A stretch of 64,000 bases of DNA from NCBI GenBank assembly GCA_963638805.1, contig CAVHTI010000005.1, forward strand, positions 9,064 through 73,063, written 5' to 3'. Below are positions 14,769 to 64,000 of this stretch, piece by piece. The stretch comes from Anaerobutyricum sp. GTDB lineage: Bacteria > Spirochaetota > Spirochaetia > Treponematales > Treponemataceae. The position numbers and the translations under genes are program-made. The notes beneath the pieces are model-generated. The model was not told the origin of the DNA, made no database searches, and saw nothing but the letters and a program-made list of their open reading frames with translations. Position 1 is the stretch's first letter. Each line of letters opens with the position of its first letter.

Positions 14769-14769
14769 A

Positions 14770-15053: not shown

Positions 15054-15076
15054 TATAAGGTATAAAAATACTTTCA

Positions 15077-15320: not shown

Positions 15321-15341
15321 ATATTAGGAATGGGAGAGAAA

Positions 15342-16625
15342 ATGAATAGTTCTTTGCTTGATTATATTTTGTGGCGCGGAGATTTGAGTTTTGAACAGTG
15401 CGAATTTGGCGAAATTGACGCCTGCATTCTTGCTCATCTGGCGTATGAACATATTGAAGGTCTTGTGAGTTCGTCTTTTTCGCAGGGAATTACGCTTGCT
15501 GACCTTGCGGAAAATTTTAAAAAAACGGCGAATTTGCGCGAAAGAACGAGCATGGGCTATGGAATTAATCCTAAAACACCGGAAATTTTGTATAAATGCG
15601 GAGAATCAAGGCGTTTTGGCGGAATAAAAGTCTGCGGTTTGTGCGAAAATTTAAGTGAAGAAAAAAACGAACAGTTTGCGGCAATGACTTTTGTGATTGA
15701 TAAAACTGCCGTGATTGTTTTTCGGGGCACGGACGATACCGTTACCGGCTGGTGTGAAGATTTACTTCTAGCAAAAAATCCGGTTTTGCCTTCTCATACT
15801 GACGGTTTAAACTATTTTAATAAGGCGGCGTCATTTTTTAAGAAAAATCTGATTATTCTGGGACATTCAAAAGGCGGGACTGTTGCCGTTTATTGTGCCG
15901 TAAAAACTTCTGCGGCGGTTCAAAAAAGAATTCTTGCGGTTTATAACATGGACGGACCGGGCTGGCCAAAAGATTTTTACAAAACTGATGAATATAAAAA
16001 GGTGGAAAACCGCATACTTTCGGTTTATCCGGAAAGTGATATTGTCGGCAAAGTTTTTTATCCTACGGCAAAATATAAAATCATAAAGTCGGACGGGGTG
16101 GGAATTCAGCAGCACGATATGTTGAACTGGCATTGTGAAGGAAAATTTCTTTGCGAGGCGGAAGATTACACGGAAGACAGCAAAATTTTCTTTAAAAGCG
16201 TTAATGAATGGTATGAAAATGTGAGCGAGCCTTCCCGCCAAAGATTTATAGATACTCTGATAGAAATTTACAGGGCGAGCGGTTATAAAAATAATTTTGA
16301 TTTAATGAATAATAAAATTAATGCAACAAAAAATATGCTCGCTGAATATAATAAACTTGATAAAGAAACTAAAGCGGTCGTGAAAAAGGTTCTGTCAACG
16401 CTTGGCAAGGTACTTGTTTCTGAACTGCCGATTTTTAATTTTTTCAGGGAAGATTTTATAAAACTTTCCGCCAAAAAAGGCGTTGAAAAAATTGCTCAGA
16501 TTGTAAAAGAAATTAAAATGCAGGGCACAGAAAATCAGCCGGATTCTGAAAATTCAAAACTTTGCTTGCCGGATAATACAAATAATGATGACGAAAAATC
16601 CCATCAGGATTATTGCGGCGACTAA
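15342..16625 (+). CDS. DUF2974 / Mbeg1-like alpha/beta-hydrolase (lipase-like) protein
   Basis: N-terminal LLDYILWRGDLSF...LAHLAYE pattern and GHSKGG nucleophile elbow, as in the Mbeg1-like family. Start trimmed to ATG 15342 after GGGAGAG. Confidence 0.65.
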   Translation: MNSSLLDYILWRGDLSFEQCEFGEIDACILAHLAYEHIEGLVSSSFSQGITLADLAENFKKTANLRERTSMGYGINPKTPEILYKCGESRRFGGIKVCGLCENLSEEKNEQFAAMTFVIDKTAVIVFRGTDDTVTGWCEDLLLAKNPVLPSHTDGLNYFNKAASFFKKNLIILGHSKGGTVAVYCAVKTSAAVQKRILAVYNMDGPGWPKDFYKTDEYKKVENRILSVYPESDIVGKVFYPTAKYKIIKSDGVGIQQHDMLNWHCEGKFLCEAEDYTEDSKIFFKSVNEWYENVSEPSRQRFIDTLIEIYRASGYKNNFDLMNNKINATKNMLAEYNKLDKETKAVVKKVLSTLGKVLVSELPIFNFFREDFIKLSAKKGVEKIAQIVKEIKMQGTENQPDSENSKLCLPDNTNNDDEKSHQDYCGD

Positions 16626-17381: not shown

Positions 17382-18779
17382 ATGGAAACTGATTTTTGTG
17401 CTGATTTTGAAAAGAAGATTTTTTCTCAACTTGTAAAACTTACCGGCTCTAACAATAATTCGCTGTCTTCTGATTTGAGGCTTGGTCTTGCAGTTAGTGG
17501 CGGCGCGGATTCCGTTTCTCTTTTTGTTTCTGTAAAAGAAATTTGCCACAACTTGAATATTCCGCTTTATGTTGTAACCGTGAATCATAATATTCGGGAA
17601 GCGGAAGAAACTGACGGCGATGCTGAATTTGTTCGGGAATTATGTGAAAAAAATCCGGATTTTGACGTTCATTTTACGCTAAAAATTCTGGAAAGAGGTT
17701 TAGTGGCGCGGACGGCAGAGGAGCGTGGTGGCGGAATAGAAGAAGCGGCGCGGTTCTTGCGTTATCAGGCTTTTGAAGATTTTATAAACGAAAATCATCT
17801 TGATTATCTTTGCCTTGCGCATAATAAAAATGATCAGATTGAAACTCTTTTGATGCGCTTTTTGCAGGGAAATGGACTTGAAGGTTCGTGTGGAATTTCT
17901 GCAAAACGAGGAAAATTTATTCGGCCGTTGCTGGAAACTTCCCGCGCGGAAATTGAAAAATATCTGAAAATTAAAAAAATCACGTGGCGAACAGATTGTA
18001 CAAATTCTGATACTCAATATCTCAGAAATAAAATCCGGCTGAAACTTGTTCCTTTTTTGTCTGAAAATTTTACGGGCTGGCAGAATGCTTTAATTCACGG
18101 AGCAAAAAAAGCAGAAATTGACTGTCAGTTTATAAATTCTCAGGTCAACATTGCTCAAAATCTGATTGATAATAAAAATTCTGTAGAAATAAAATCATTT
18201 TGTGCCCTTGATGATGCCGTGAAATATCGTATTTTGCTGCGGATGTTTAATAATGCGGGTGAAAATAATCGTGTGCCTTCTGTGCTCGTAAATGAAATAA
18301 TTTTTCAGCTGAAAAAAGGCGACGTTAAAAAATATTATGGAAATTCGGAAATTATTAGCGACGGCGACAGACTTTTTATAAAAAAATGCAGTAAAACTCA
18401 AACTGATTTGTGGTTTTCTGATATAATAAAAAAAGACGGTGTTTATGAATTTCCTTTTGGGGAAATTTGTTCTGTCCAGAAGTTTAATGGCTTTAATCAA
18501 AGTGAAATTGAACTTTCGTGCGGTCAATTTTCTGTTTCGCTGAAAATTTCTTATCCTTTTTGCATAAGAAACTGGCAGACTGGGGACTGCATCAAAACAA
18601 AGTCTGGAAATTATAAAAAAATTGCAGATATTTTTGCAGACTGGCAGGTCAGTTTACAAAAACGTTCAATGATTCCTTTAGTTCAGGAACTTGAAACTGC
18701 AGAGCAGGAAATTCTGTGTATCTTTGGAAAATCTGCCGGGTTTTATAATTGGGTCGTAAATGAAAAAATTAACAATTAG
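17382..18779 (+). CDS. tilS: tRNA(Ile)-lysidine synthase
   Basis: PP-loop motif AVSGGADSVSL, 465 aa, with a TilS C-terminal domain. Confidence 0.85.
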   Translation: METDFCADFEKKIFSQLVKLTGSNNNSLSSDLRLGLAVSGGADSVSLFVSVKEICHNLNIPLYVVTVNHNIREAEETDGDAEFVRELCEKNPDFDVHFTLKILERGLVARTAEERGGGIEEAARFLRYQAFEDFINENHLDYLCLAHNKNDQIETLLMRFLQGNGLEGSCGISAKRGKFIRPLLETSRAEIEKYLKIKKITWRTDCTNSDTQYLRNKIRLKLVPFLSENFTGWQNALIHGAKKAEIDCQFINSQVNIAQNLIDNKNSVEIKSFCALDDAVKYRILLRMFNNAGENNRVPSVLVNEIIFQLKKGDVKKYYGNSEIISDGDRLFIKKCSKTQTDLWFSDIIKKDGVYEFPFGEICSVQKFNGFNQSEIELSCGQFSVSLKISYPFCIRNWQTGDCIKTKSGNYKKIADIFADWQVSLQKRSMIPLVQELETAEQEILCIFGKSAGFYNWVVNEKINN

Positions 18780-33177: not shown

Positions 33178-33927
33178 ATGGCTCGTACACATTATATTGC
33201 CGGTAACTGGAAAATGAACACTTCTAAAGCAGAAGCTGTTGCATTAGCAAAAGATTTGGTTGAACAGTTGAAAGGAAAAACAAACAAATTTATGATTGGC
33301 GTTCCTTTTGTTTATCTTGATGCTGTTGCTCAGGTTGTAAAAGGCTCAAATATTATTTTGGCTGCTCAGGATTGTGCTGCAACTTCAAATGGTGCTCACA
33401 CTGGTGAAGTTTCTACAACTATGCTCAAGGATATTGGATGTCAGTGCGTTATTCTTGGTCACTCAGAACGTCGCCACGAAATTGGTGAATCTGATGAATT
33501 GATTAACAAAAAAGTTCGCAAGGCTTTGAACGATGGTCTTGAAGTTGATCTTTGTATTGGTGAACTTCTGGCTGAACGTGAAGCTGGCGAGGCTGAACAG
33601 GTTTGTGCATTCCAGCTTTCTGCTGACCTTGCTGGCGTTACAGAAGAACAGATGAAAAACGTTACAATCGCTTATGAACCTGTTTGGGCTATTGGAACTG
33701 GCAAAACTGCTACTCCTGCTGATGCTGAAGCAATTCACAAGTTTATTCGTGGTTATATTGCAAAACTTTACAACCAGAAAGTTGCTGATGAAATTATCAT
33801 TCAGTACGGTGGTTCAATGAAGGCTTCTAACGCTCCTGAACTTTTGGCTCAGCCTGATATTGACGGTGGCTTGATTGGTGGAGCTTCCCTTAAAGCTGAA
33901 ACATTTGTTCCAATCTGCGTGCTCTAA
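33178..33927 (+). CDS. tpiA: Triosephosphate isomerase
   Basis: IAGNWKMN, GHSERR, AYEPVWAIGTG and GGASL. Confidence 0.95.
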   Translation: MARTHYIAGNWKMNTSKAEAVALAKDLVEQLKGKTNKFMIGVPFVYLDAVAQVVKGSNIILAAQDCAATSNGAHTGEVSTTMLKDIGCQCVILGHSERRHEIGESDELINKKVRKALNDGLEVDLCIGELLAEREAGEAEQVCAFQLSADLAGVTEEQMKNVTIAYEPVWAIGTGKTATPADAEAIHKFIRGYIAKLYNQKVADEIIIQYGGSMKASNAPELLAQPDIDGGLIGGASLKAETFVPICVL

Positions 33928-34058: not shown

Positions 34059-34370
34059 GCACTAAAAATGAGTAACGGAAGGCGTGCTAAAACACACGAT
34101 ATTAAGAATATGCGTGAGAAAAAGCAATATAATGTGAACGGTACTGAAAATTAGTAACGGAAGGCGGGGTTCCGACCCTGAAAAAAAATCTGCACAAGCG
34201 AAGCGCGGAAGCCTTTTTTTCAGGGCGGGTTCACGCCTGAAGTTTACTGTAGTTACCCAGCGGGCCCCGTGCTTTTTCGTAAGCATATTCGACATTTATC
34301 ACGCAAGTTCACGCCTGAAGTTACTGATAGTTTCATCACCCGCACCACGCTTTTTCGTAAGCATATTCGA
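34059..34370. repeat. Composite tandem repeats in the tpiA-secG spacer
   Basis: An 82-bp-period pair (34059-34084 / 34141-34166, ..TAGTAACGGAAGGCG). A 78-bp-period pair (34229-34292 / 34307-34370, GTTCACGCCTGAAGTT..TTTTTCGTAAGCATATTCGA). A 12-bp inverted repeat CCCTGAAAAAAA/TTTTTTTCAGGG (34176-34225). Confidence 0.75.
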
Positions 34371-34450: not shown

Positions 34451-34843
34451 ATGAGTACAGTTGGTATTGTTCTTTTAGTATTTTTTGTCATCGTTAGTTT
34501 GTTGCTGGTTCTTCTTGTTGCAATTCAGGACGATGGCGAAAGTGGAATGGGCGGACTTTTAGGTGGTCGTGGAACTGCTGCATTCGGTTCTCATTCTGCA
34601 AGTGTACTGACAAAAGCAACTGCTGTTCTGGTTGTTCTTTTCTTTGTATTGGCTTTAGGTCTTGCTCTTGTGAATAAACCAAAACATAAGGCAGCTGCAA
34701 TTGATGAAGTAAAAACTACTGCAACTTCAGAAGAAAGTATAACAGAAAATTCTTCATCTACTTGGTGGACAGAAAATTCTGAAAATGCTAACATAACGGC
34801 AACTGAAGAAACTGTTCCTGCTGAATCTGCAGAAACGGAGTAA
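34451..34843 (+). CDS. secG: Preprotein translocase subunit SecG
   Basis: Two TM helices flank the GMGGLLGG..G motif. Found downstream of tpiA, the usual synteny. Has a long acidic/Thr-rich C-terminal tail. Confidence 0.85.
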   Translation: MSTVGIVLLVFFVIVSLLLVLLVAIQDDGESGMGGLLGGRGTAAFGSHSASVLTKATAVLVVLFFVLALGLALVNKPKHKAAAIDEVKTTATSEESITENSSSTWWTENSENANITATEETVPAESAETE

Positions 34844-52490: not shown

Positions 52491-53267
52491 TCATCTCTTC
52501 CGTTTTCTAAAAATCATAAAAATTATGACTCCGCAGGCCAGGACAAAAAGAAAAATGCTTATCCACTGTGAAGTCGAAAATGCCCCGTAGATTTTTCTTT
52601 CGGCGTCGCCACGTAAATATTCAAGAAAAAATCTGGTTACGCTGTAATATAAAACGTAAAAAATCACGGAAACTTTTTTGTCCTTAAAATATCTGAAAAT
52701 CATAATGAGCGCAAAAATAATCATCAAAAGCGATTCTAAAAGCTGGACGGGAAAAATTCCGGTGTCTGGTGGCACGTTTGTAATTGGATTGTGATAGTAA
52801 ACTGCAAATGGCCCGTCATATAAAATCCCGTAACAGCACCCGCCACAAAAACAGCCCAACCTTCCAAAAGCATGGCACCACGGAATAAGAAAAGTCAGTT
52901 CTTCAAAAAAATAATTGATTTTGCACTTAGCAATCAAACTGCCAAGAAAATATCCAAAACATCCAAAAATCAATCCTCCGTAAAAAACAAAACCTTCGCC
53001 CAGTTGCGTTTGTTTTGGTTTAAAAAGCATATAAAAAATAATTTTTGGAATGTCCTTTAGCGGATATGTTATGACCAGAAAAAGAAGTTTTGCGCCAATA
53101 AAACTAAAAAAAGTAACAAGCGCCGCAATTATAATAAAAGAATAAAAATCTTTTCCCTTTTTTTTGCATCCTTTAAAAACAATAAAAGCCCCGGAAAATA
53201 TTCCAAGAACAATGCAAAGGCCATAAAGCGGGATTTTTATAAAACCAAGATTAATAAAGGGAAGCAT
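52491..53267 (-). CDS. lgt: Prolipoprotein diacylglyceryl transferase
   Basis: 258-aa polytopic protein. N-terminal IKIPLYGLCIVLGI and FGRLGCFCGGCCYG resemble Lgt signatures. Confidence 0.7.
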   Translation of the reverse strand: MLPFINLGFIKIPLYGLCIVLGIFSGAFIVFKGCKKKGKDFYSFIIIAALVTFFSFIGAKLLFLVITYPLKDIPKIIFYMLFKPKQTQLGEGFVFYGGLIFGCFGYFLGSLIAKCKINYFFEELTFLIPWCHAFGRLGCFCGGCCYGILYDGPFAVYYHNPITNVPPDTGIFPVQLLESLLMIIFALIMIFRYFKDKKVSVIFYVLYYSVTRFFLEYLRGDAERKIYGAFSTSQWISIFLFVLACGVIIFMIFRKRKR

Positions 53268-53337: not shown

Positions 53338-53601
53338 TTAGAACAGACTAGAGAAGTCTATAGCTGCTGCGCTGGCACCAATGCATATAGCGCAAACAAT
53401 TGTAGCAATAATACCCCAAGTAAGTGCAATAATTCCAAAAATCATTCCGACTTTTCCGGCTTTACTTCGTTTTGCAGAAATTGCACCAAAAATAATTGCA
53501 AAAACACCAAGAATCGAACCAACCCATCCAAGACTGAATGCTCCACCAATAGTACTGCTGAGTAATGAAAGAATACCAGCAACCAATGCAAATGCGCCCA
53601 T
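53338..53601 (-). CDS. Small Gly/Ala/Ile-rich membrane protein of unknown function
   Basis: 87 aa with three hydrophobic segments. No recognisable family. Confidence 0.55.
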   Translation of the reverse strand: MGAFALVAGILSLLSSTIGGAFSLGWVGSILGVFAIIFGAISAKRSKAGKVGMIFGIIALTWGIIATIVCAICIGASAAAIDFSSLF

Positions 53602-53676
53602 ACGAACTCCTTTTTTTTTATAATTTACATATATTTTAAATGAGAATACTGAATTGTCAAATTTTTATTTTTTTAC

Positions 53677-53820
53677 GGGTGGCCCGGCAATAAATTGCCG
53701 TCGGGCTTTCCGCAATTCCGCTGTTCGCTCCAAAGTCCTCGGCGTGCAAATGGCACGCCTGTGGGCTTTCGCTTCGGCAATTGAAATTGCCTTCGCGCTT
53801 GCTACAATCCCTGCCACAGG
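53677..53820 (-). repeat. Dispersed hairpin-rich element, copy D (inverted)
   Basis: The reverse complement aligns with copy A: GGGATTGTAGCAAGCGCGAAG, hairpins at 53776-53791 and 53741-53759, and GAGGACTTTGGAGCGAACAGCGGAATTGCG (30 nt identical to A). Confidence 0.75.
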
Positions 53821-53851
53821 TGTACATTCAAAATTAAATTTCAGAAATAAA

Positions 53852-54517
53852 ATGAAACGTGGTAAAATAAATTTTATGTCTTTAATTCGTGCTTTTAACT
53901 GGTTCACAAAAATTACTGCGTGGCCAATTTATAACTTTCTTTCCAGGCCAAAATATTATTACGAAGATAAAAAAATCCAGAACAGAAAAATAAAAGGCGG
54001 AGCAATTATTGTTTCAAATCACACGGCATTGTTTGATTATCCGGTTTTTATGTTTACGTTTTTTTGCCGTACGCTACGCTACCAAATGGCAGAAGTTTTG
54101 TTTGAAAAAAAAGTTCTGGGCTGGCTTTTAAAAAGACTTGGTGCCATTTATGTTGACCGCCGGACTTTTGATTTTTCCTTTATAAAAAAATCAGAAGATA
54201 TTTTAAAAAATGGCGGAGTAGTTGGAATTTTCCCAGAAAGCAGGCTTCCCCGCCCACAAGAAGAACGGCCGTTGCCATTTAAACCAAGTTTTGCTTACGT
54301 TGCATTTTCTTCCGGTGCACCGCTTATTCCTTGTTTTACAAATGGTTCATATTTTTCAAAAAAAAGAACACGGGTCATAATCGGAAAACCTCTTTATCCT
54401 CAGGATTATTTTGATAAAACAAAAACTAAAAAAGAAAATATGGCGGAACTTTCAAAAGTTGTACGCGAAAAAATCATTGAATTAGGAAAATTATTAGATG
54501 AACAGTGCAAAAAATAA
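53852..54517 (+). CDS. PlsC-type (LPLAT) acyltransferase 1
   Basis: HX4D motif VSNHTALFDYP and the IFPESR motif. The ORF-track start 53654 reads through repeat copy D, so it was trimmed to ATG 53852 (221 aa, matching the 220-aa paralogue). Confidence 0.8.
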   Translation: MKRGKINFMSLIRAFNWFTKITAWPIYNFLSRPKYYYEDKKIQNRKIKGGAIIVSNHTALFDYPVFMFTFFCRTLRYQMAEVLFEKKVLGWLLKRLGAIYVDRRTFDFSFIKKSEDILKNGGVVGIFPESRLPRPQEERPLPFKPSFAYVAFSSGAPLIPCFTNGSYFSKKRTRVIIGKPLYPQDYFDKTKTKKENMAELSKVVREKIIELGKLLDEQCKK

Positions 54518-55160
54518 AAAAAGCGGATTATTTTCATTAAAGTACCTTATGTATGATTTTTTGCGAATTATACTCTGGTTTCCGGGATTCCTTGTGTGGC
54601 GCCCAAAATATCTTTACGAAAACAAAACTGCCAGCAAAAAAATAAAAGGCGGGGCCGTCGTAATTTCCAATCATCTGGGATTTATGGATCCGGTTTATTT
54701 AATGTACGGACTTTGGTACAGAAGACTTCATATCGTGGCACTTTCGGTGCTTTTTAATACAAAAATCAAAAATTTTTTCTTCCGGCATTTTTTGTGCATC
54801 CCGGTTGATCGCGAAAATTTTAATATGTCCACTTTCCGCGAAATTATTTCGGTTTTAAAACAAAATCAGATTGTCGCAATTTTTCCGGAAGGCAGAATAA
54901 ATTTTGAAAACAAAGGACTTCAGACTTTTAAATCCGGAATGGTTTTAATGGCAATGCAAAGTGGCAAACCTGTCGTCCCGGTTTTTATAGAAAAGAAAAA
55001 AGGATTAATTAATCGCCTCGTCGTTGTCGTTGGTGAGCCGATATTAATTGACTCAAAAAACTCAAATCTGAAAATGATTGAGAATGTAACATCTGAAATA
55101 TATAATAAAGAAAATATACTAAAAAAAATCGCAGAAGATTACAGGAGTAAAAATGACTAA
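54498..55160 (+). CDS. PlsC-type (LPLAT) acyltransferase 2
   Basis: HX4D motif ISNHLGFMDP and the IFPEGR motif. Overlaps the upstream gene by 20 nt. Confidence 0.8.
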   Translation: MNSAKNKKSGLFSLKYLMYDFLRIILWFPGFLVWRPKYLYENKTASKKIKGGAVVISNHLGFMDPVYLMYGLWYRRLHIVALSVLFNTKIKNFFFRHFLCIPVDRENFNMSTFREIISVLKQNQIVAIFPEGRINFENKGLQTFKSGMVLMAMQSGKPVVPVFIEKKKGLINRLVVVVGEPILIDSKNSNLKMIENVTSEIYNKENILKKIAEDYRSKND

Positions 55161-56658
55161 TTCTGATGTTTTTAAAAAGTACACGGATAAAGAAACTTTT
55201 GAAAAAATTGTAAATTATGATTCAATATCTCAAATGTGGCAGAATTGTATTCAAAAATATTCTGAACTGAATGCAATTGATTTTGACGGAAAAAAATATA
55301 CCTTTGCCCAGCTGGAAAATGATGTTTCCGCTTTTAGATCGTTATTGAAAAGTCTTGAAAGAGGGCAGCGCGTCGCTTTGTTCAGTTCAAATTCTTACAA
55401 TTTTGTAAAAGTTTATCTTGCAATTGTAACTTCCGGACTGTCTTGTGTGATTTTGCCAGCTCATCTTGATGAAATGTCAGTTTTTGGCTGTTGTATGAAA
55501 TTTGGCGCAAAAACTCTTGTAACTTCGCCGGAACTTGAAGAAAAAACAAAAATCGCGGCAAGCAAAGGCATTAATATCCTAAAAACTTCTGATTTTGGTG
55601 AAGAAAAACTTCCGCCTGTTGAAGTAAAACCAGAATCAGAGGCCGTTTTGATGTTTACTGGCGGAACAACCGGCAAAAGCAAGGCCGCAATTTTAAATAA
55701 TCGTGCAATAATGCAGGGCACTGTGAACGGTTGCTACGGATATAAAGACGTATTTAATCAAAAATATATTCTTGTACTTCCGCTTTCTCATGTTTTTGGT
55801 TTAATCAGAAATCTTATGACTTCGCTGTATACCGGCAGTGAACTGTTAATTTGTAAAAATAATAAGGATATGTTTAAAGATATTGCAGTTTTTAAACCTA
55901 CAATCCTTGTTGCTGTCCCGGCCCTTTTGGAAATGTCGCTGAATCTTTCTCGTCAGTTTGGAAAAAATATGCTTGGTGAGTCTATGAAATATGTAATTTG
56001 CGGGGCCGCTGCAGTTCCTCCGTATTTAATTTCTGAATGGAAAAAGTATAATGTCACGGTTTTTGCCGGCTATGGCTTAACGGAATCTGCAAATCTTGTG
56101 TGCGGAAATCCTGAAAGTGCCACAAAACCTGATTCTGTTGGATTTTTGTATCCGAATCAGGAAGTTAAAATTGTTGACGGTGAACTTTATCTCAAGGGTA
56201 ATAATATGTTTACCGAATATGCTGCCGAACCGGAAGAAAATAAAAATGCTTTTGACGACGGTTGGTTTAAAACCGGAGACCTGGTTCGCCTTGATGATGA
56301 CGGATTCCTTTACATTACGGGCCGCATAAAAGAAGTCATTGTTCTGACAACTGGCGAAAATATTTCTCCGGCGGAAGTTGAAGTTCACTTTAATCAGCTG
56401 AATCTTATCCAGGATTCTCAGGTTTACGAAGATATTGATGAAAGTGGCAAACATTTTCTGGCACTGGAAGTTGTTCCGCGCGCTACGGAAATGGCAAAAC
56501 TCAAAGAAGAAAACAAGGCCGAAGTTCTTACAAAGGAACTTGAAAAAATCAATAATTCGTTGCCTTTATTTGAACGCGTTTCAAAAATCATTATCCGCAC
56601 TTCAGATTTTGAAAGAACTCCAAGCATGAAAATCAAGAGATACAAAAAATGCAATTAA
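55153..56658 (+). CDS. ANL-superfamily AMP-dependent ligase (acyl-carrier-protein/CoA synthetase-like)
   Basis: FTGGTTGKSK (A3), GYGLTES (A5), TGD (A8) and C-terminal MKIKR. AGGAG lies 5 nt upstream. Overlaps the upstream gene by 8 nt. Confidence 0.85.
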   Translation: MTNSDVFKKYTDKETFEKIVNYDSISQMWQNCIQKYSELNAIDFDGKKYTFAQLENDVSAFRSLLKSLERGQRVALFSSNSYNFVKVYLAIVTSGLSCVILPAHLDEMSVFGCCMKFGAKTLVTSPELEEKTKIAASKGINILKTSDFGEEKLPPVEVKPESEAVLMFTGGTTGKSKAAILNNRAIMQGTVNGCYGYKDVFNQKYILVLPLSHVFGLIRNLMTSLYTGSELLICKNNKDMFKDIAVFKPTILVAVPALLEMSLNLSRQFGKNMLGESMKYVICGAAAVPPYLISEWKKYNVTVFAGYGLTESANLVCGNPESATKPDSVGFLYPNQEVKIVDGELYLKGNNMFTEYAAEPEENKNAFDDGWFKTGDLVRLDDDGFLYITGRIKEVIVLTTGENISPAEVEVHFNQLNLIQDSQVYEDIDESGKHFLALEVVPRATEMAKLKEENKAEVLTKELEKINNSLPLFERVSKIIIRTSDFERTPSMKIKRYKKCN

Positions 56659-56906
56659 ATAAAGATGAAATTGTTAAAAAACTGGTAGAAATTCTTATAA
56701 ATCAGGACGAAAAATATAAGTCCCTTGAATCAAACGTGACGGACGATATGTCTCTCACGACGGATTTGGGGCTTAATTCTGTGGGAATGCTTTATCTTGT
56801 GATTGTGATTGAAGAAACTTTCGGTATTCATTTTGAAGACATTGGAATTGATGATTTCAAGACTTTTGGTGATATGGTCAGTTATATTCAAGAAAATCAA
56901 AAATGA
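56649..56906 (+). CDS. Acyl/peptidyl carrier protein
   Basis: 85 aa. The phosphopantetheine-attachment context DLGLNSVGM differs from the canonical FAS ACP motif DLGADSLD. Confidence 0.8.
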   Translation: MQLNKDEIVKKLVEILINQDEKYKSLESNVTDDMSLTTDLGLNSVGMLYLVIVIEETFGIHFEDIGIDDFKTFGDMVSYIQENQK

Positions 56907-57556
56907 CGACTTTCGATTTTTTTTCTGTGTTTAAAAAAAAACTTCCGGTTCTTGACGTTTATATTTCAAGAATCCCTGAAAATTTGCAGATAAAACCGGT
57001 TTTTCCGCCTGAACGCTATGATGAAATTCAAAATGTAAAAAATGAAAGCGTAAAGTGCCAAAAATACTGGTCGTGGAAGGTTTTAGAAAATGCTTTGTCA
57101 AAAAGTTTTGGTTTAAAAATGGAGGACATCAGGTTTTCAAAAACTAAAAAAGGAAAATGGCTTTGCAATAAATGCTATTTTTCAATTTCAAACACAGAAA
57201 AAATTGTTGCGATTGCCGTTTCAAATAAAACTGTCGGAGTTGATATAGAAAATATTGAAAAATTTTCTTCAAAAGAGCACAAAATAAAAAATCTTTTTGA
57301 AAGAATTGCAAATCCGACAGAATTAAAACTGGCAAACGAAGAAATTTCCGTAAAAGATTTTCTTGAACTCTGGACTAAAAAAGAGGCCGCGTATAAATCT
57401 GAAAAAAAACAGAAAAATTTTAATCCGCAGAAAATGGTTTTAAACGAAAATTACGTTTTTACAAAATTCGGCGTCCTGGAAAATACCGGATATTGCCTGT
57501 CGCTGTATTCTCCGCTAAAAAATTCTGTTCAGTTTTTTGATTTCACCGAGGAATAA
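56903..57556 (+). CDS. Sfp-type 4'-phosphopantetheinyl transferase
   Basis: 217 aa (two-domain Sfp size rather than the ~120-aa AcpS). Motifs VGVDIE and WTKKEAAYK. ATGA overlap with the carrier gene. Confidence 0.8.
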   Translation: MTTFDFFSVFKKKLPVLDVYISRIPENLQIKPVFPPERYDEIQNVKNESVKCQKYWSWKVLENALSKSFGLKMEDIRFSKTKKGKWLCNKCYFSISNTEKIVAIAVSNKTVGVDIENIEKFSSKEHKIKNLFERIANPTELKLANEEISVKDFLELWTKKEAAYKSEKKQKNFNPQKMVLNENYVFTKFGVLENTGYCLSLYSPLKNSVQFFDFTEE

Positions 57557-57558
57557 AA

Positions 57559-58464
57559 ATGATTATTTTTCTTATAACTTTGTTTTCTCTGATTATTCCC
57601 GTCATTCTGGCGCCTTTTGGTTTTCCGTTCGGCGTTTTTTTTAGTCTCCTTTTTCGGCATAAAAAATTTGTAAAAGATGATGATTTTGAAATTCAGTTTG
57701 ATAAAGAAATCCTTGAGTTAAAAAATTATAAAAAGATTAAAGCTGAAATAAAAACCCGCGATCACCTAAAATTAAAAGCAGAATATTTTGATTTTGGTTT
57801 TAAAAAAGCTGTAATTTTGATTCCGGGTTATAAAAATTCTCCATATTTTAATTTTTCGGATTCTGCAAAAGTTTTTGTTCAAAATGGTTACAATCTTCTG
57901 ATGACTCATCAGCGCGCTTACGGAAAACACACCGGGCATTATTGCGGGACGGGTTTAAAAGAACAGTACGATTTGCTCCAGTGGATTGACTACCTCAGTA
58001 AAAACACGGATTGCCAGAGTATTGTCATTTACGGAGTTTCTATGGGCGCTGCGACCGTTGCCTATTGTTCAGAAAAAATCAAAGATGAAAAAGTAAAAAC
58101 ACTTTTGATTGATTCGGCGTACACGTCTTTTTATGATATGCTTTATTTGTCCGCTTCAAAAAGAAAAATTATGGGCCCGCTTGTTTTAAAAGTGATTCCT
58201 TTTCTTGCAAAAACTTTTTTAAAAATCAATTTAAAGTCGCAAACTTCTGATTGTTTAAAAAATAACAAAATTCCTTCGATTTTTCTGGCCGGCTCTGAAG
58301 ACAAAACGGTTCCGGTATCTAATTTTTTAAACTTGTATTATAATAATAGTTCTGAAAAACTATTAATCATCGTGCCGGGTGCTTCTCATATAAAAGCGTT
58401 TACAGTTGGCGGGCCGGTAGTTCAGAAAAAAATATTTGATTTTATAAAAAAGGTGGATTGTTAA
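57559..58464 (+). CDS. Membrane-anchored alpha/beta hydrolase (paralogue 1, Ser nucleophile)
   Basis: N-terminal TM helix, nucleophile elbow GVSMG, and Asp (GSEDK) and His (GASHI) contexts. Confidence 0.75.
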   Translation: MIIFLITLFSLIIPVILAPFGFPFGVFFSLLFRHKKFVKDDDFEIQFDKEILELKNYKKIKAEIKTRDHLKLKAEYFDFGFKKAVILIPGYKNSPYFNFSDSAKVFVQNGYNLLMTHQRAYGKHTGHYCGTGLKEQYDLLQWIDYLSKNTDCQSIVIYGVSMGAATVAYCSEKIKDEKVKTLLIDSAYTSFYDMLYLSASKRKIMGPLVLKVIPFLAKTFLKINLKSQTSDCLKNNKIPSIFLAGSEDKTVPVSNFLNLYYNNSSEKLLIIVPGASHIKAFTVGGPVVQKKIFDFIKKVDC

Positions 58465-59400
58465 ATGTCTGATTTTGCGATTGTAACAGATTCTTTTTGT
58501 GAACTGAGTAAAGAAATTCGTGACCGCTACGATATTGATTTTGTTCCTGGCCATATTGCTTTTCCGGATGGAAGGGAAGGAAAATTAAATCTTGAGTGGG
58601 ATTTAATGCCGGAAGAAGAATTTTATTCTAATATCAAAAAAAATCCGGATTTTTACAAAAGTTCACCGGCAAATGTCGCAGAAATGGCTCAAAAATTTGA
58701 ATCTTACGCAAAAAATAAAAAAGGCGTTTTGTTTATTGCAATTTCCACGGCAATTAGTGGCACTTACAATTTTGCACTTCAGGCTAAAAAAATCGTTCAG
58801 GAAAAATATCCCGAATCTCAAATAGAAATTATTGATTCTATGCGTTATGGTCACGGACACGGCCTTATGTGTGTTCATGCTTCGCAAATGCGGGATTCTG
58901 GAAAATCTTTGAATGAAGTTTACGAATATATGAATTCAAACAAAAACACTTATCATCAGGGGGGCTGGCTTGATGATTTGTCTTTTGTCGCAAAAAAAGG
59001 CAGAATTTCTAATTCAAAGGCATTTTTTGGAACTTTAGTCGGCATTAAACCAATCGGTGAATTTGATGATGCCGGCCTGACAACAATTCTTGGCAACGTT
59101 AAAGGCGAAAAAACTGCATATAAAGTTGTCCTGGATTACATTGAAAATACAATTCTTGATGCTCAGAATCAGACAATTATTATTGGTTACACAAAACGAG
59201 AAAAACAGGCGGAAATTCTTAAAGCAATGATAGAAGACAGATTTCATCCAAAAGAAATTCTTATGAGTAAGTTTTTCTGCGGTTGTGGAATTAACGTTGG
59301 CCCTGGATTAATGAGTGCCTACTATTCTGGAAAACCTATTTCTAAAGGTCTTGAAACAGAAAAAAAACTTTTTGCAGAACTGATTGCAAAAAACAAGTAG
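58465..59400 (+). CDS. DegV-family fatty-acid-binding protein (FakB-like)
   Basis: Starts IVTDSFCELS, about 310 aa, DegV-type two-domain pattern. Confidence 0.8.
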   Translation: MSDFAIVTDSFCELSKEIRDRYDIDFVPGHIAFPDGREGKLNLEWDLMPEEEFYSNIKKNPDFYKSSPANVAEMAQKFESYAKNKKGVLFIAISTAISGTYNFALQAKKIVQEKYPESQIEIIDSMRYGHGHGLMCVHASQMRDSGKSLNEVYEYMNSNKNTYHQGGWLDDLSFVAKKGRISNSKAFFGTLVGIKPIGEFDDAGLTTILGNVKGEKTAYKVVLDYIENTILDAQNQTIIIGYTKREKQAEILKAMIEDRFHPKEILMSKFFCGCGINVGPGLMSAYYSGKPISKGLETEKKLFAELIAKNK

Positions 59401-59407
59401 GACAAAA

Positions 59408-61063
59408 ATGAGCGTAACAAGTTTAAACGGCGAAATTTTACGGGGAATGTTGCAAAACGGATTAAATAATATCCGTGTTCACGAAACTGAAGTAAATGAC
59501 ATGAATGTTTTTCCGGTCCCTGATGGTGATACCGGTACAAATATGCGCCTGACCTTGCAAAATGGCCTTGCAAATGCACCTGCCGACCGGGATTTGGGTG
59601 CTTATCTGAAAAAAGTAAAAAAAGGAATGCTTCTTGGTGCGCGCGGAAATTCCGGAGTAATTTTATCTCAGTTGTTTTCCGGCCTTTCTGAATCTTTGGA
59701 ACGAGACAGCATCGTCAATGTCGATGAATTTCGTGATGCTCTTGTACAGGCATATAAAACCGCCTACAAATCTGTTATAAAACCCGTTGAAGGTACAATT
59801 TTGACGGTGGCGCGGGAAGGTATTGAGCAGATAAAACATCAGATTAGCCGCAGAATTACTTTTGAAACTGAACTTTCTATGTATATTGCTCAAATGCGAA
59901 AAAGTTTGAAATTGACGCCGGAACTTCTGCCGGTTTTAAAAGATGCCGGCGTTATGGACAGTGGCGCGACCGGCTATATTTATATTTTTGAAGGTATGCT
60001 TTCGTATTTGAACGGCGAAATTATTTCTGCGGAAGAAAAATCTGAAAAAGAAATACAAAATCCAGTGTCAAATTTAAATACTCAAAGTTTTACTGCGGAC
60101 AGCAAATTTGAGGACGGATATTGTACGGAATTTCTTCTGCAGCTTTTAAAGGACGAAAAATACAATCAGGATTTTAACATTGATGATTTTATAAAAGAAA
60201 TTTCTTTGCTTGGAAATTCTCTTGTGGTTTTGCAGGAGGACGACCGCGTAAAAGTTCATATTCACAGTTTAAAACCTGCTGCCGTTATAGAAAAAGCTCA
60301 AAAATACGGCGAATTTGTTACATTCAAAATGGAAAATATGCAGTTGCAACACAACGAACATATTGTTCACATGCAGGAAATTCAGCAGCGCGCAGAACAT
60401 AAAGAATTTGCCGTAATTGCAGTTGCAAACGGAGAAGGAATCACAGAACTTTTTAATTCTATGGGTTGTGACATTGTGATTGACGGTGGCCCGACGATGA
60501 ATACTTCTGCGGAAGAATTTTTGAACGCTTACAAAAAATTAAATGCAGATTTTATTGTAGTTTTGCCGAATAATAAAAATATTTTCCAGTCCGTAAAACA
60601 GTCAATTGAACTTTCCGGAAATTCCAATATCAAGATGCTTGAAACTCAAAATCTTGTGGAAGGCTACTATGCACTTGCAATGGGTAACGTTGAATCTTCC
60701 GACCGCGACTATAAACTTTCGCTTATGCAGGACGGAATTGACGGTGTGGACGTTGTTTCCATCACGGTTGCGTCGCGCGATTATTCTAACGACGGAGTTT
60801 CCTGCCTGAAAAATGATTTTGTTGCCCTTTTGAATGGAAAACTTATTGCGTCTGCAAATGAATTAAAAAATCTTATAGAAAATATTTCTGATAAAATACC
60901 TGACATCAAAGAAAAAGAATCCTGTGTTGTGTTCAAAGGCGCCGAAGCTGACGATGATTTGCAAAATCAATTGCAGGAAATTCTTTGCGATGCCATTCCT
61001 GACACGGAATTCAGTTTTGTTGACGGTGGCCAGAAAATTTTTTACTTTTTGATGGGATTTTAG
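59408..61063 (+). CDS. DAK2-domain protein, YloV/FakA-like fatty acid kinase subunit
   Basis: NVFPVPDGDTGTNM DhaL/Dak2 signature and a long C-terminal extension, as in YloV. The ORF-track start 59384 was trimmed to ATG 59408, just after the degV stop. Confidence 0.8.
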   Translation: MSVTSLNGEILRGMLQNGLNNIRVHETEVNDMNVFPVPDGDTGTNMRLTLQNGLANAPADRDLGAYLKKVKKGMLLGARGNSGVILSQLFSGLSESLERDSIVNVDEFRDALVQAYKTAYKSVIKPVEGTILTVAREGIEQIKHQISRRITFETELSMYIAQMRKSLKLTPELLPVLKDAGVMDSGATGYIYIFEGMLSYLNGEIISAEEKSEKEIQNPVSNLNTQSFTADSKFEDGYCTEFLLQLLKDEKYNQDFNIDDFIKEISLLGNSLVVLQEDDRVKVHIHSLKPAAVIEKAQKYGEFVTFKMENMQLQHNEHIVHMQEIQQRAEHKEFAVIAVANGEGITELFNSMGCDIVIDGGPTMNTSAEEFLNAYKKLNADFIVVLPNNKNIFQSVKQSIELSGNSNIKMLETQNLVEGYYALAMGNVESSDRDYKLSLMQDGIDGVDVVSITVASRDYSNDGVSCLKNDFVALLNGKLIASANELKNLIENISDKIPDIKEKESCVVFKGAEADDDLQNQLQEILCDAIPDTEFSFVDGGQKIFYFLMGF

Positions 61064-61073
61064 GATTTTCATT

Positions 61074-62012
61074 ATGATTTCAAGAATTTTTTTAATCATT
61101 GCTGCTTTTATTATTTTTTCGGCAGTAGTTTTTATTTTGGTTCCGCCGTTTATTGTTTATAAAATTCTGCTTGTTCGTACAAAAAAATCAAAATGGGGAC
61201 GCGAATGCAGCATGACGACGGATAAAGAACAGATGGAAATGTTTTCTACCGGCGAACAATGGCTTGAAACTTATAAAGAATTTTCCTCAGATGTAAAAAT
61301 TAACAGTGAAGGTTTTAATCTTGCGGGCATTTATTTTGATTTTGGTTTTAAAAAATCCGTAATCATAATTGCCGGAAGAAGTGAAAGCTGCCTGTACTGC
61401 TGTTATTTTGCCGAACCTTACAGAAAAAGCGGTTATAACGTGCTTGTAATTGATAATCGTTGTCACGGATTGTCTGACGGAAAGTACAATACCGTTGGTT
61501 ATAAGGAATACGCCGACATTCTTGCCTGGGGAAAATTCCTTCATGATGAAAAAAATAACGAAAGTGTAATTTGTCACGGAATTTGTATTGGTTCAACGAC
61601 TGCGTTGTATGCGCTCATAAGGCCTGAATGTCCTGACTATATGAAAGGTTTGATTGCGGACGGAATGTTCACGACTTTTAAAGAATCTTTTAATAATCAT
61701 CTTATTGATCAGCATCGCCTGCAATTCCCGACTACTCAAATTGTGATGCTTCTTCTTTCCATTCATTCTGGGGAAAATGCGTTTAAAAAAGGCCCCGTGA
61801 CCGTAATTCAAGATTATAAAAAGCCGATTTTGTTTTTGTACAGCAAGCAGGATAAATTTTCCCTGCCCAAAAATGCCGAAGAACTTTATTCAAAATGTAA
61901 TTCAAAAAAGAAACTCGTGTGGTTTGAAAAGGGCGTGCATTCACATTTGCGCATAAATGCACCAGAAAAATACGATGATTCAATCTGCGAATTTGTAAAA
62001 GAAAATTTCTAA
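61074..62012 (+). CDS. Membrane-anchored alpha/beta hydrolase (paralogue 2, Cys at the nucleophile position)
   Basis: Paralogue of 57559-58464 (shared YFDFGFKK[AS]VI). The elbow reads GICIG (TGT at 61584-61586). Asp (SKQDK) and His (GVHSH) contexts are retained. Confidence 0.75.
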   Translation: MISRIFLIIAAFIIFSAVVFILVPPFIVYKILLVRTKKSKWGRECSMTTDKEQMEMFSTGEQWLETYKEFSSDVKINSEGFNLAGIYFDFGFKKSVIIIAGRSESCLYCCYFAEPYRKSGYNVLVIDNRCHGLSDGKYNTVGYKEYADILAWGKFLHDEKNNESVICHGICIGSTTALYALIRPECPDYMKGLIADGMFTTFKESFNNHLIDQHRLQFPTTQIVMLLLSIHSGENAFKKGPVTVIQDYKKPILFLYSKQDKFSLPKNAEELYSKCNSKKKLVWFEKGVHSHLRINAPEKYDDSICEFVKENF

Positions 62013-62024
62013 AAGACTAAATAT

Positions 62025-62900
62025 ATGGAAAAAACTGCTTTTATAACAATGGATGTTGAATCTTTTTATGATACAAGTTGCGTAAAGGCAAAATTTCCTT
62101 GTGAAAATCAAAAGCAAAATTTTTCCTGTGCGGAAGAAATCCTGAACTTTGCGGAACTTTTACAAAAATATGATTGCAAGGCCACGTTTTTTATAACCGG
62201 AACTTTTATTGACGAAATTAAAAAATATTTTCCGGCCTTAATTCAGTCAAAAAACGAAATTTCACTGCATTGTTATAAACACGTTTCGCCATTAACTCAA
62301 AATTTGGATGAATTTGATGAGGATATAAAAAAAGCGTGCCGTTTGATAAAAGAAAATTCTGGAGTTTTCCCGGCCGGCTACAGGGCGCCTTGTTTTGGAA
62401 TTGATGACGAGAGGCTCAAAATTGTGCGTCAAAATCAGATGAAATACGATTCATCATTTATGGACACGAGTTTGTCGGTTTACAACGGCCGGATTAATAT
62501 GGACGGTTACAAAAAAATCAATGATTCGCTTTATGAAAAAAACGGATTTTATGAATGTGTGCCGTCCGTTGTAAAATTTCTTGGCATAAAATATCCGGTT
62601 TCTGGGGGAGCATATCTGCGCATTCCGCCTTATTTTTTTGTGAAAATTCTTTTAAAAAAATATTTGAAAAACGCGGACAGTTATCTTTTTTACGTTCATC
62701 CTTTTGAAATTTCAAAAAAACGCCTGCCACTTTCTAAAAAATTCAGTCTTGCAGAAATCCTTTATATAAATCGTGGGCGGCGCAGATATTTAAAAAGAAT
62801 TGAAAAAATTTTTATCCTTTTGAAAAAATACGGTTATACTTTTTATACAATTGGTGACTTTGCTGAAAAAATCAAAAATCCGGAGGAAAAAAATGTCTGA
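62025..62900 (+). CDS. Polysaccharide deacetylase (CE4/NodB-like) family protein
   Basis: N-terminal FITMDVESFYD and the SLHCYKH His-pair context resemble CE4 deacetylases. Confidence 0.6.
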   Translation: MEKTAFITMDVESFYDTSCVKAKFPCENQKQNFSCAEEILNFAELLQKYDCKATFFITGTFIDEIKKYFPALIQSKNEISLHCYKHVSPLTQNLDEFDEDIKKACRLIKENSGVFPAGYRAPCFGIDDERLKIVRQNQMKYDSSFMDTSLSVYNGRINMDGYKKINDSLYEKNGFYECVPSVVKFLGIKYPVSGGAYLRIPPYFFVKILLKKYLKNADSYLFYVHPFEISKKRLPLSKKFSLAEILYINRGRRRYLKRIEKIFILLKKYGYTFYTIGDFAEKIKNPEEKNV

Positions 62901-63960
62901 TGATAAGAAAAAATCTGGATCTGAAACTGCAAAAAAAATTTTAGGCGCGGTTGCAGTCACGGCTGGAATTGGAGCGGGAATTTACGGGGCAACATCACTG
63001 TACAATTCATTTTTTGGACGATACGAAAAACTCGACTACAAAGTAAATCCGGGCTTGTATGATTACGAAAAAGTAAAAGATAAATTAAATCGCGAAGAAA
63101 TTTCGTTTTATTCAGATAACGTAAGACTTCAGGGATATTATTATTTTGTGGAAGGTGCAAAAGGTCTTGTGGTTATAAGTCACGGGCTGCACGCCGGCGG
63201 GGACGATTACCTTCCGATTACAATGTTTTTTGTAAAAAATGGCTACGATGTTTTTTCTTTTGATTACAAGGGCACTTACAATTCTGACGGAAAATCGACG
63301 GTTGGAATGAGCGAATCTCTTGTAGATTTAAATAATGCCTTGAATTTTATAAAATCTGACAACAAATTTTATGGCCTAAAAATATTTCTTGTTGGACATT
63401 CCTGGGGCGGTTTTGCAACGGCGGCGGTTTTGTCTTTACAAAAAGGAATCAGTGCGGCCGCGTGCATTGCAGGATTTAACAGCGGTTACACTTTAATCCG
63501 CGAAAAAGGTTTTCAGTACGGCGGAGAACTTGCCGCAAACGGAATTCCCAAAATGTTTCTGGACACTTATCAAAAAATTTTATTTAAAGATTATGCAAAA
63601 TATGATGCGGTTACGGGAATTAACGCTCAGTTCATTCCGGTTTTGCTTGCGCACGGAAAAAAGGATTTTGTAATTGATTTTAATCTTCAGTCAATTGTGT
63701 GTCATGCAAACGAAATCAGAAATCCTCAGGTTCAGTATTATATTGGCGAGGAAGAGCAGGCCGGTCATGATTCAATCTGGCATTCAAAAAATTCTGTTGC
63801 TTATAAAAAATCCGTGGATAAAAAAATCAAGGAAATCAAAAAAAACGGAACAGAGGAAGATTTAATAAAATATTGTTCAACAATTGATGATGAACTTTAC
63901 AGTGAAATAAATTACGAGCTTTTTAATAAAATTCTGATAATGTTTAATAATGTGTTATAA
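62893..63960 (+). CDS. Membrane-anchored alpha/beta hydrolase (third, distinct family member)
   Basis: TM helix, then GHSWGG elbow, with HGKKD and GHDS contexts. ATG 62893 has GGAGG 6 nt upstream and overlaps the CE4 gene stop by 8 nt. The ORF-track TTG 62851 was rejected. Confidence 0.75.
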   Translation: MSDDKKKSGSETAKKILGAVAVTAGIGAGIYGATSLYNSFFGRYEKLDYKVNPGLYDYEKVKDKLNREEISFYSDNVRLQGYYYFVEGAKGLVVISHGLHAGGDDYLPITMFFVKNGYDVFSFDYKGTYNSDGKSTVGMSESLVDLNNALNFIKSDNKFYGLKIFLVGHSWGGFATAAVLSLQKGISAAACIAGFNSGYTLIREKGFQYGGELAANGIPKMFLDTYQKILFKDYAKYDAVTGINAQFIPVLLAHGKKDFVIDFNLQSIVCHANEIRNPQVQYYIGEEEQAGHDSIWHSKNSVAYKKSVDKKIKEIKKNGTEEDLIKYCSTIDDELYSEINYELFNKILIMFNNVL

Positions 63961-64000
63961 TAAGAACAATCTGAAAAAAAAGGTGAAAATCAATGTATTG

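Follow-up and report, generated by a model that had tools for sequence, protein, structure and literature searches.

A two-module operon of a rumen or gut Treponema, shared with Clostridia, looks like an undescribed route from scavenged fat to membrane lipids

What do two acyltransferases, an acyl-activating ligase with its own carrier, a fatty acid kinase pair, three lipase-fold enzymes and a deacetylase do together when they are encoded end to end on one strand? This question is raised by eleven + strand genes at positions 53852 to 63960 of a 64,000-nucleotide stretch of Treponema DNA (contig CAVHTI010000005.1, assembly GCA_963638805.1; this whole stretch is called the window here). The operon looks like an apparently undescribed route that builds membrane lipids from scavenged fat. 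With moderate confidence, we read it as the form that a horizontally shared operon of two modules takes in Treponema; the operon would acquire or reuse lipid acyl chains, be they exogenous or recycled. The answer starts from what was observed directly, namely the protein families, their intact catalytic motifs, the gene order, the co-inheritance of the modules and the phyletic spread.

The initial annotation of this DNA had described eleven tightly packed genes, and both their coordinates and their ten junctions (-20, -8, -10, -4, +2, 0, +7, +10, +12 and -8 nt) were identical when recomputed. The median of the remaining 31 same-strand junctions in this stretch is 57 nt, and since only 29% of them measure 12 nt or less, a run of ten tight junctions is unexpected by chance (p ~4e-6, assuming independent junctions). 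Terminator-like sites within the eleven genes showed no excess (7 versus 9.1 ± 3.7 in shuffled sequence). Domains were called with Pfam gathering scores and with NCBIfam curated and equivalog cutoffs. All eleven proteins passed the Pfam gathering scores for the families first proposed for them, and the NCBIfam results were consistent with these.

To follow the genes in other species, one genome per GTDB species was scanned for relatives of the ligase. The scan gave 547 relatives, of which the best 80 were kept, each with 10-kb flanks. Searches by tblastn with the eleven proteins of the window, supplemented by extra proteins from relatives, gave the gene order of each locus. Presence was counted over assessable (long-enough) loci, and the counts depend on tblastn thresholds and contig ends. 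The order shared on one strand among these best 80 of 547 loci is PlsC1-PlsC2-ligase-acyl carrier protein (ACP)-(4'-phosphopantetheinyl transferase, PPTase)-abH1-DegV-FakA-abH2-(CE4)-abH3, where abH stands for alpha/beta hydrolase. PlsC2, always directly before the ligase, the ligase itself and the ACP directly after it form an invariant core (counts in Table 1). The genes abH1-DegV-FakA-abH2 are all-or-none beside the ligase module, with all four in 49 loci, three in 3 and none in 9. The locus behaves like two modules, one for acyl-carrier and acyltransferase functions and one for fatty acid kinase (Fak). Two other Treponema (L005 and L006) have a block inversion of DegV-FakA-abH2. The initial annotation had allowed that the genes might not be co-conserved in relatives; they are strongly co-conserved in the 80 species-level loci.

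The hosts are mostly rumen and gut Clostridia, along with four other Treponema, Candidatus Ornithospirochaeta and one Sphaerochaetaceae metagenome-assembled genome (MAG), all of them anaerobes of the rumen or gut. When homologues of abH2 were looked up, Candidatus Coproplasma came to light as well, and so did an uncultured Bacilli MAG in which the cluster is complete. The cluster is present in at least one complete genome, that of Ruminococcus sp. JE7B6, and in Butyrivibrio crossotus, a cultured species that is represented here by a MAG. The LepA protein of the window shares 90 to 92% identity with its counterparts in the rumen Treponema isolates JC4 and C6A8 as well as in many MAGs of this genus. 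Close homologues of the ligase number in the thousands, and the top 120, at 58 to 98% identity, come from Treponema, Ruminococcus, Lachnospiraceae, Oscillospiraceae and Clostridia; across Clostridia and spirochaetes the ligase is 54 to 67% identical. Gene order and strand are preserved across three bacterial classes/phyla at about 30 to 65% protein identity. In neighbour-joining trees, which are rough, the Treponema ligases formed one clade, and those of Ornithospirochaeta and Sphaerochaetaceae were placed elsewhere among Clostridia. This scattering of the spirochaete ligases, together with an order kept at a cross-phylum identity of 45 to 65%, suggests horizontal spread of the cluster within the gut and rumen habitat.

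The first module comprises PlsC1, PlsC2, the ligase, the ACP and the PPTase. Its two acyltransferases, which share 31% identity, are paralogues that have the catalytic HX4D and FPEG/SR motifs inside their PF01553 domains. HX4D and FPExR were found in 51 of 52 PlsC1 orthologues, and HX4D was retained in 56 of 62 PlsC2 orthologues. The nearest solved structure of PlsC2 is PlsC of T. maritima (5kym), and the second-best NCBIfam match of both paralogues is the acyltransferase domain of the Aas-type acyl-[ACP]--phospholipid O-acyltransferase. Because both miss the cutoff of the lysophosphatidic acid acyltransferase family TIGR00530 (58.9 and 75 bits versus 102.95), they are classed only as members of the LPLAT superfamily, with putative lysophosphatidic acid acyltransferase activity.

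The ligase showed only generic ANL similarity and reached no NCBIfam equivalog cutoff. Its nearest solved relatives are oxalate-CoA ligase, malonyl-CoA synthetase, o-succinylbenzoate-CoA ligase (MenE) and FadD13 (E ~1e-32 to 1e-25). The invariant adjacent carrier gene, whose start overlaps the ligase stop by 10 nt, points to a carrier protein as the acceptor. The carrier missed every AcpP equivalog cutoff of NCBIfam (best 46.5 versus 70 bits) and lies among ligase and PPTase genes with no fab genes, which agrees with its first description as unlike a housekeeping ACP. The serine that aligns with the phosphopantetheine-bearing Ser36 of E. coli AcpP is conserved in the orthologue consensus. PPTases of the AcpS type have about 120 residues, and those of the Sfp type about 220 to 240 in two half-domains. 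The enzyme encoded here was assigned to the Sfp type (group II), as first proposed, because of its 217 residues and its resemblance to AusB, HetI, AcpT and EntD, its best NCBIfam matches, all under equivalog cutoffs. D-alanylation by a DltA/DltC-like pair was considered and rejected: the cluster has no MBOAT or DltD partner, and the amino-acid-adenylation match of the ligase is weak and far from the top.

The second module comprises abH1, DegV/FakB, FakA and abH2. The FakB/FakA family is established as a maker of acyl-phosphate. The Dak2, FakA-like_M and FakA-like_C domains of FakA are all above Pfam cutoffs, and the protein passed TIGR03599 (YloV; 510.7 bits, cutoff 396) but did not reach the S. 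aureus equivalog NF038248 (FakA_VfrB; 404 versus 975 bits). DegV, whose gene lies 7 nt upstream of fakA, passed TIGR00762 (210 bits, cutoff 99.7) and did not reach the FakB1 equivalog cutoff. Both proteins are bona fide members of the families to which the initial annotation had assigned them; formation of acyl-phosphate by this pair is predicted.

The hydrolases on either side of the kinase pair, abH1 and abH2, are paralogues (28% identical, E = 7e-25) that carry serine and cysteine, respectively, at the same position. The GxSMG motif of abH1 was found in 44 of 44 orthologues. In abH2 the motif is GICIGS, in line with the cysteine variant noted at the outset, and the cysteine is kept in 38 of 38 orthologues; C171, D260 and H289 are invariant among 31 database homologues. 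The AlphaFold (AF2) model of abH2 (predicted local distance difference test, pLDDT, 94.8) consists of a 32-residue N-terminal helix and an alpha/beta-hydrolase core, and among solved structures it comes closest in fold to the Pf2001 esterase of Pyrococcus and to monoglyceride lipases from mycobacteria and human. A cysteine in the lipase box, as in BAAT and polyhydroxyalkanoate synthase, favours acyl transfer over hydrolysis. The transmembrane segment of abH1 (residues 2 to 20) is followed by RHKK and the N-terminal anchor of abH2, located by hydropathy, by RTKKSK. Because these basic patches follow a single N-terminal anchor, cytoplasmic catalytic domains are suggested for both. The third hydrolase, abH3, has the GHSxG serine in 37 of 37 orthologues, and in the PDB it has the Pf2001 esterase and monoglyceride lipases as neighbours. 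It has a basic N terminus and then a hydrophobic stretch that scores below the hydropathy threshold, and an outward-facing catalytic domain is suggested.

Relatives of the cluster add or swap genes. A fusion of an ANL ligase with a carrier domain (637 to 657 aa) lies at the 5' end of clostridial and Bacilli clusters (51 of 64 loci, by position) and was never found without PlsC1. An LRAT/PLAAT-type cysteine acyltransferase of 138 aa, with HYGIF and NCEHF motifs, is encoded between the ACP and the PPTase in 62 of 77 loci. It is often truly fused to the PPTase in a single protein of 330 to 340 aa with both Pfam domains (L041, positions 11732-12751; also L007, L076 and L081), an architecture of which no description was found in the literature. 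The clostridial LRAT has no signal peptide, and neither it nor the MFS_2 protein has a PDB sequence match. The latter is a transporter of the GPH family with 12 transmembrane segments, encoded between DegV and FakA in 43 of 66 loci. No homologue of the LRAT, the MFS_2 transporter or the ANL-carrier fusion is encoded in the whole 64-kb window, and the Treponema operon in the window is a trimmed, lineage-specific version of the larger two-module locus. In other Treponema, a BD-FAE esterase replaces PlsC1, an MMPL transporter follows the ACP, and the inverted block reads GT2-abH2-FakA-DegV. In the rumen Treponema locus L005 (11818-15348), the carrier is followed by a 383-aa unknown membrane protein and a 792-aa MMPL-family transporter. 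Additions of a single lineage are GpsA (one locus only), MMPL and further esterases. These single-lineage genes, like the LRAT, the MFS_2 transporter and the ANL-carrier fusion, are all lipid-related.

No recurrent plsX, plsY, cdsA or fab genes were found in the flanks, and the clustering of 618 unlabelled flank open reading frames (ORFs) returned only a zinc-ribbon family and antisense-ORF artefacts. An apparent PlsC-ligase fusion in L079, which would form a Rosetta-stone link to Aas, was rejected as an ORF-calling artefact because its two tblastn matches lie in different frames. In one case, a Christensenellaceae MAG, a TMEM164-family protein is encoded just upstream of the cluster (L081, 7413-8195), and in L073 a CPBP/Rce1-like gene adjoins it.

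For the proposed system we infer substrates, acceptors, membrane topology and direction of flux as follows. In the first module, the Sfp-type PPTase would convert the dedicated carrier to its holo form, and the ligase would charge it, at the expense of ATP, with a free acid, a long-chain fatty acid being the most likely one. The PlsC paralogues would then transfer the carrier-bound acyl group to a lyso-glycerolipid or to glycerol-phosphate, which follows the logic of E. coli Aas with separate proteins. In the second module, the membrane-anchored, lipase-fold abH1 and abH2 would release or transfer the acyl chains of acyl-glycerol or lyso-lipid esters at the membrane; FakB would bind the fatty acid, and FakA would phosphorylate it to acyl-phosphate, the donor of PlsY. 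External esters would be attacked by abH3, predicted to face outward. Working together, the modules would turn exogenous or recycled lipid into both of the acyl donors that the PlsY/PlsC pathway uses. Through the MFS_2 transporter and the LRAT, the scheme may extend in Clostridia to imported lyso-lipids or to transacylation.

Several observations weigh against this proposal. HX4D is lost in about 6 of the 62 PlsC2 orthologues, and neither PlsC paralogue reaches TIGR00530. The ligase matches no fatty-acid-specific equivalog, and short dicarboxylic- and aromatic-acid ligases are among its nearest solved relatives. The topology of the hydrolases was derived from hydropathy and the positive-inside rule alone, and the cysteine nucleophile of abH2 argues for acyl transfer over plain hydrolysis. 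An organism with Fak and PlsX would have no need of an acyl-ACP synthetase. Finally, a role in salvage leaves the CE4 deacetylase, the zinc-ribbon protein encoded by the next gene downstream (gene 12) and the GT2 glycosyltransferase found in relatives unexplained.

The locus was compared with known systems. E. coli Aas/LplT shares with it the ANL ligase, the ACP and the PlsC-type acyltransferase, and relatives of the window cluster add an MFS transporter; this transporter, however, belongs to MFS_2 and not to the LplT family, and it is missing from the window. In Aas, PlsC and ANL are fused, whereas here PlsC2, ligase and ACP are separate proteins encoded by adjacent overlapping genes (75 to 80 of 80 loci), with two acyltransferase paralogues and a dedicated carrier that has its own Sfp-type PPTase. 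The Aas logic seen in the initial annotation has some support in the match of the PlsC paralogues to the Aas acyltransferase domain but none in fusion or in the Aas equivalogs NF005959, NF006386 and NF005291, which score 32 to 64 bits versus cutoffs of 886 to 1349.

The FakA/FakB system of Firmicutes (S. aureus, Streptococcus and E. faecalis) has the same DegV-family binder and three-domain Dak2 kinase. The Firmicutes system serves the uptake of exogenous fatty acid, a role that is predicted here as well. Unlike in Firmicutes, the pair sits between two membrane-anchored lipase-fold paralogues, one with a cysteine nucleophile, and is co-operonic with a ligase/ACP/PlsC module in a spirochaete; in relatives the Fak module also carries the MFS_2 transporter.

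In the gut clostridium Coprococcus eutactus, a stand-alone adenylation domain loads oleate onto a dedicated ACP (PMC13310621). This NRPS-like Oaa pathway to fatty-acid amides (OaaA/OaaACP/OaaC) acts on a dietary or host fatty acid and shares with the cluster a stand-alone adenylating enzyme, a dedicated small ACP and gut Clostridia as hosts. The cluster differs in having PlsC-family O-acyltransferases in place of a condensation domain, for which no match was found in any cluster gene of the window or of the relatives examined, and in its additional Fak, lipase and LRAT genes. The staphylococcal LnsA, a bacterial LRAT-type enzyme, uses the sn-1 acyl chain of phosphatidylglycerol to N-acylate lipoproteins (PMC13559823). 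The clostridial LRAT shares the permuted His...NCEHF Cys dyad of such phospholipid-acyl-taking enzymes, but it lacks a signal peptide, is fused to the PPTase and is absent from the Treponema window. The LnsAB system pairs the secreted, LRAT-like LnsA with a CPBP partner, whereas the window encodes no LRAT, and L073 is the one locus with a CPBP gene next to the cluster. Although every protein falls within a known superfamily, the set belongs to neither Oaa nor LnsAB and was not classed with Aas/LplT. The literature holds precedents for each part but none for the ensemble, and full-text searches turned up no article about the set, in keeping with the earlier remark that no characterised operon of this composition was known.

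Three routes are known to activate exogenous fatty acid, and fatty acid uptake and use by rumen bacteria has been described as largely unexplored (PMC12394162). The operon unites two of these three activation chemistries. How fatty acids are used in rumen and gut matters for the digestion of fibre, for the toxic effect of unsaturated fat on rumen bacteria and for resistance to drugs against type II fatty acid synthesis. The locus offers a concrete and widespread candidate gene set, with at least 80 species, 547 ligase relatives and three classes/phyla. Components without an assigned role are the Cys-Asp-His enzyme abH2, which has a monoglyceride-lipase fold and is inherited together with FakA, the LRAT-PPTase fusion and the zinc-ribbon membrane protein. 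The complete genome of Ruminococcus sp. JE7B6 and the cultured species B. crossotus make the hypotheses directly testable.

Lysophospholipid repair, or Lands-type remodelling of the cell's own membrane, coupled to lipoprotein lipidation, is a possible but unlikely alternative to the acyl-chain acquisition proposed above. In such a system the cytoplasm-facing abH1 and abH2, with the LRAT in Clostridia, would strip off or shift the acyl chains of endogenous phospholipids, Fak would recapture the freed acids, and the ligase, ACP and PlsC1/2 would re-acylate, in parallel to Aas/LplT of E. coli, which handles the lyso-phosphatidylethanolamine left by lipoprotein N-acylation. The Aas acyltransferase domain matched by both PlsC paralogues would fit this, but the Aas equivalog cutoffs are missed more than tenfold. 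The positive patches after the transmembrane helices of abH1 and abH2, which suggest cytoplasmic domains, agree with it as well. The gene for Lgt, the prolipoprotein diacylglyceryl transferase, adjoins the operon here, where it is divergent; in three loci of Lachnospiraceae (L014, L047 and L067) it directly precedes the cluster and shares its strand. Lgt may be functionally linked to the operon, but its adjacency is limited to 4 lineages of about 80. The precedent of LnsA and the CPBP/Rce1-like gene beside the cluster in L073 also speak for remodelling; against them, LnsA is secreted, whereas the LRAT of the cluster lacks a signal peptide and is joined in one protein to a cytoplasmic PPTase, and the 64-kb window of this Treponema has neither an LRAT nor the MFS transporter.

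It is likewise doubtful that the operon makes a specialised acylated envelope lipid, such as an N-/O-acylated amino-sugar lipid. Here the carrier would deliver acyl groups to a glycosyl- or polyprenyl-linked acceptor made by the GT2 enzyme and de-N-acetylated by CE4, following the logic of NodC/NodB/NodF-NodA or ArnC/ArnD. Dedicated pathways typically have a Sfp-type PPTase and a carrier other than AcpP, and the cysteine nucleophile of abH2 and the LRAT both suggest transacylation. The deacetylase itself was confirmed in its domains and in its TxDVES and HxxxH metal motifs (6 of 6 orthologues), and its nearest solved structure is PgdA of H. pylori (3qbu). It has no signal peptide and no transmembrane segment, and this absence of an export signal would place it in the cytoplasm with a possibly lipid-linked substrate. 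Its gene recurs directly after abH2 in distant lineages, namely the Bacilli MAG and Candidatus Coproplasma. However, CE4 was present in only 4 of the 57 loci that could be assessed and counts as accessory, not as part of the core. In the sister genome L002 the operon ends in a 243-aa GT2, which resembles the PpgS/AglJ polyprenyl-phosphate glycosyltransferases below their cutoffs, and a 97-aa membrane protein (L002 16709-17804), and two further Treponema genomes have the same GT2 alongside abH2-FakA-DegV. On the other side, the GT2 is confined to Treponema loci, the invariant core has no glycosyltransferase, no acceptor-forming enzyme is conserved family-wide, and FakA/FakB are enzymes of primary metabolism. 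The exosortase/XrtA-associated set (ligase_PEP_1, hydr1/2_PEP and CE4) was also tried and rejected: the CE4 match (XrtA equivalog TIGR03006, 110 versus 276 bits) and the ligase match are below cutoff, and the hydrolases have no PEP hydrolase match.

A salvage of acyl chains that is in part free of ATP seems improbable. The abH2 cysteine and the clostridial LRAT-PPTase would form thioester intermediates, and chains taken from (lyso)glycerolipids or from acyl-phosphate would pass to the carrier or to new acceptors, which would join Fak and ACP chemistry without PlsX or give an undescribed lipid class. That no common pathway exists, and housekeeping fakAB and plsC are merely co-transcribed with unrelated hydrolases, a ligase and a carrier, is very improbable: all components do come from large, common families, about 15% of loci have no Fak module beside the ligase module and a promoter-like site precedes gene 12, but mere co-location is at odds with an order and strand kept across three classes/phyla at merely 30 to 65% protein identity and with the true LRAT-PPTase gene fusion, as well as with all-or-none modules and with overlapping or abutting junctions among which terminator-like sites are no commoner than in shuffles.

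The acyl-chain operon reaches beyond the eleven genes first described. The sister genome L002 (96% identical), a species-level sister contig, has after abH3 a 192-aa gene 12, the GT2 gene and the gene of the 97-aa membrane protein (17511-17804), followed by a T-tailed terminator with a 19-bp stem that faces a convergent permease gene. Because the L002 operon continues for these three genes up to the terminator, the window probably cuts a transcription unit of about 14 genes. The eleven genes stand as described, but they are probably not the whole unit, and the unit is itself a trimmed form of a larger locus. The twelfth gene that had been proposed at 63993, 32 nt after abH3, is borne out by complete 192-aa genes in L001 and L002, which match Zn_Ribbon_1 and DUF4190. 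Family clustering placed members of its type inside the cluster, on the + strand, at 35 more loci. A promoter scan placed a promoter-like site ahead of gene 12, and with it a sub-operon that starts there may be conceivable.

The start of gene 1 is probably 53876 rather than 53852 as initially annotated, since the ATG at 53852 is CTG in L002 and clostridial PlsC1 orthologues begin at the position of the next ATG (53876). Shine-Dalgarno motifs had been noted at most starts; such motifs precede 7 of the 11, several of them merely AGGA, and none was found at PlsC1, ACP, PPTase or CE4.

Table 1. Features of the operon and its upstream region (window positions), with the number of loci that have the gene over the number assessable
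Feature	Positions	Strand	Family evidence	Loci
Lgt, prolipoprotein diacylglyceryl transferase, divergent neighbour	52491..53267	-	PF01790 120 bits	
Small multi-transmembrane protein, 87 aa, upstream, divergent	53338-53601	-	no Pfam family	
GC-rich hairpin-forming intergenic element, ~150 nt, between small membrane-protein gene and PlsC1	53670..53825	.		
PlsC1, LPLAT/PlsC-family acyltransferase, 213 aa	53876..54517	+	PF01553 67.8 bits	66/72
PlsC2, LPLAT/PlsC-family acyltransferase	54498..55160	+	PF01553 82.3 bits	75/75
ANL (adenylate-forming) ligase, putative acyl-carrier-protein synthetase	55153..56658	+	PF00501 190 bits	80/80
Dedicated acyl carrier protein, 85 aa	56649..56906	+	PF00550 26.1 bits	79/79
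Sfp-type 4'-phosphopantetheinyl transferase, 217 aa	56903..57556	+	PF01648	42/74
abH1, alpha/beta hydrolase, Ser nucleophile, N-terminal transmembrane anchor	57559..58464	+	PF12146, PF00561	58/73
DegV/FakB fatty-acid-binding protein	58465..59400	+	PF02645 198 bits	59/70
FakA/YloV fatty acid kinase catalytic subunit	59408..61063	+	PF02734 + PF21645 + PF13684	52/61
abH2, transmembrane-anchored alpha/beta hydrolase, Cys171-Asp260-His289 triad	61074..62012	+	PF12146, PF00561	52/61
CE4 deacetylase with DUF3473, accessory member	62025..62900	+	PF01522 + PF11959	4/57
abH3, alpha/beta hydrolase, Ser nucleophile	62893..63960	+	PF12146 60.7 bits, PF00561	33/53
Gene 12 start, zinc-ribbon and multi-transmembrane (DUF4190-type) membrane protein, cut by window end	63993..64000	+		

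The GC-rich element upstream of PlsC1 contains several hairpins (RNA fold z = -3.0) in surroundings of 35% GC. A promoter-like TTGAAA-16-TACAAT with a TG extension lies inside it at 53781-53808. The element is partly conserved in L002 with indels, and the pairing of its first hairpin is kept despite altered sequence. No second copy was found in the 64-kb window. A riboswitch or other known noncoding RNA in this leader was rejected, as Rfam gave no match at gathering or at E<=1. Small multi-transmembrane proteins without a Pfam family recur around the operon; they are the upstream 87-aa protein, the membrane portion of the gene 12 product and the 97-aa product of the last gene, whose type is also encoded upstream of the cluster in L014 and L047.

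Elsewhere, the window encodes pyruvate formate-lyase and has an operon for a V-type ATPase. Positions 34229-34370, in a 523-nt gap between the ORFs 33178-33927 and 34451-34843, contain a pair of 64-nt direct repeats that are 77% identical and 78 nt apart. A 71-nt tandem repeat at 14767-15076 (4.4 copies, 94% identity), with two hairpin-forming palindromes per unit, lies between the ORF 13599-14702 and an Mbeg1-like gene (15330-16625); since the entire unit repeats, it does not resemble a CRISPR array.

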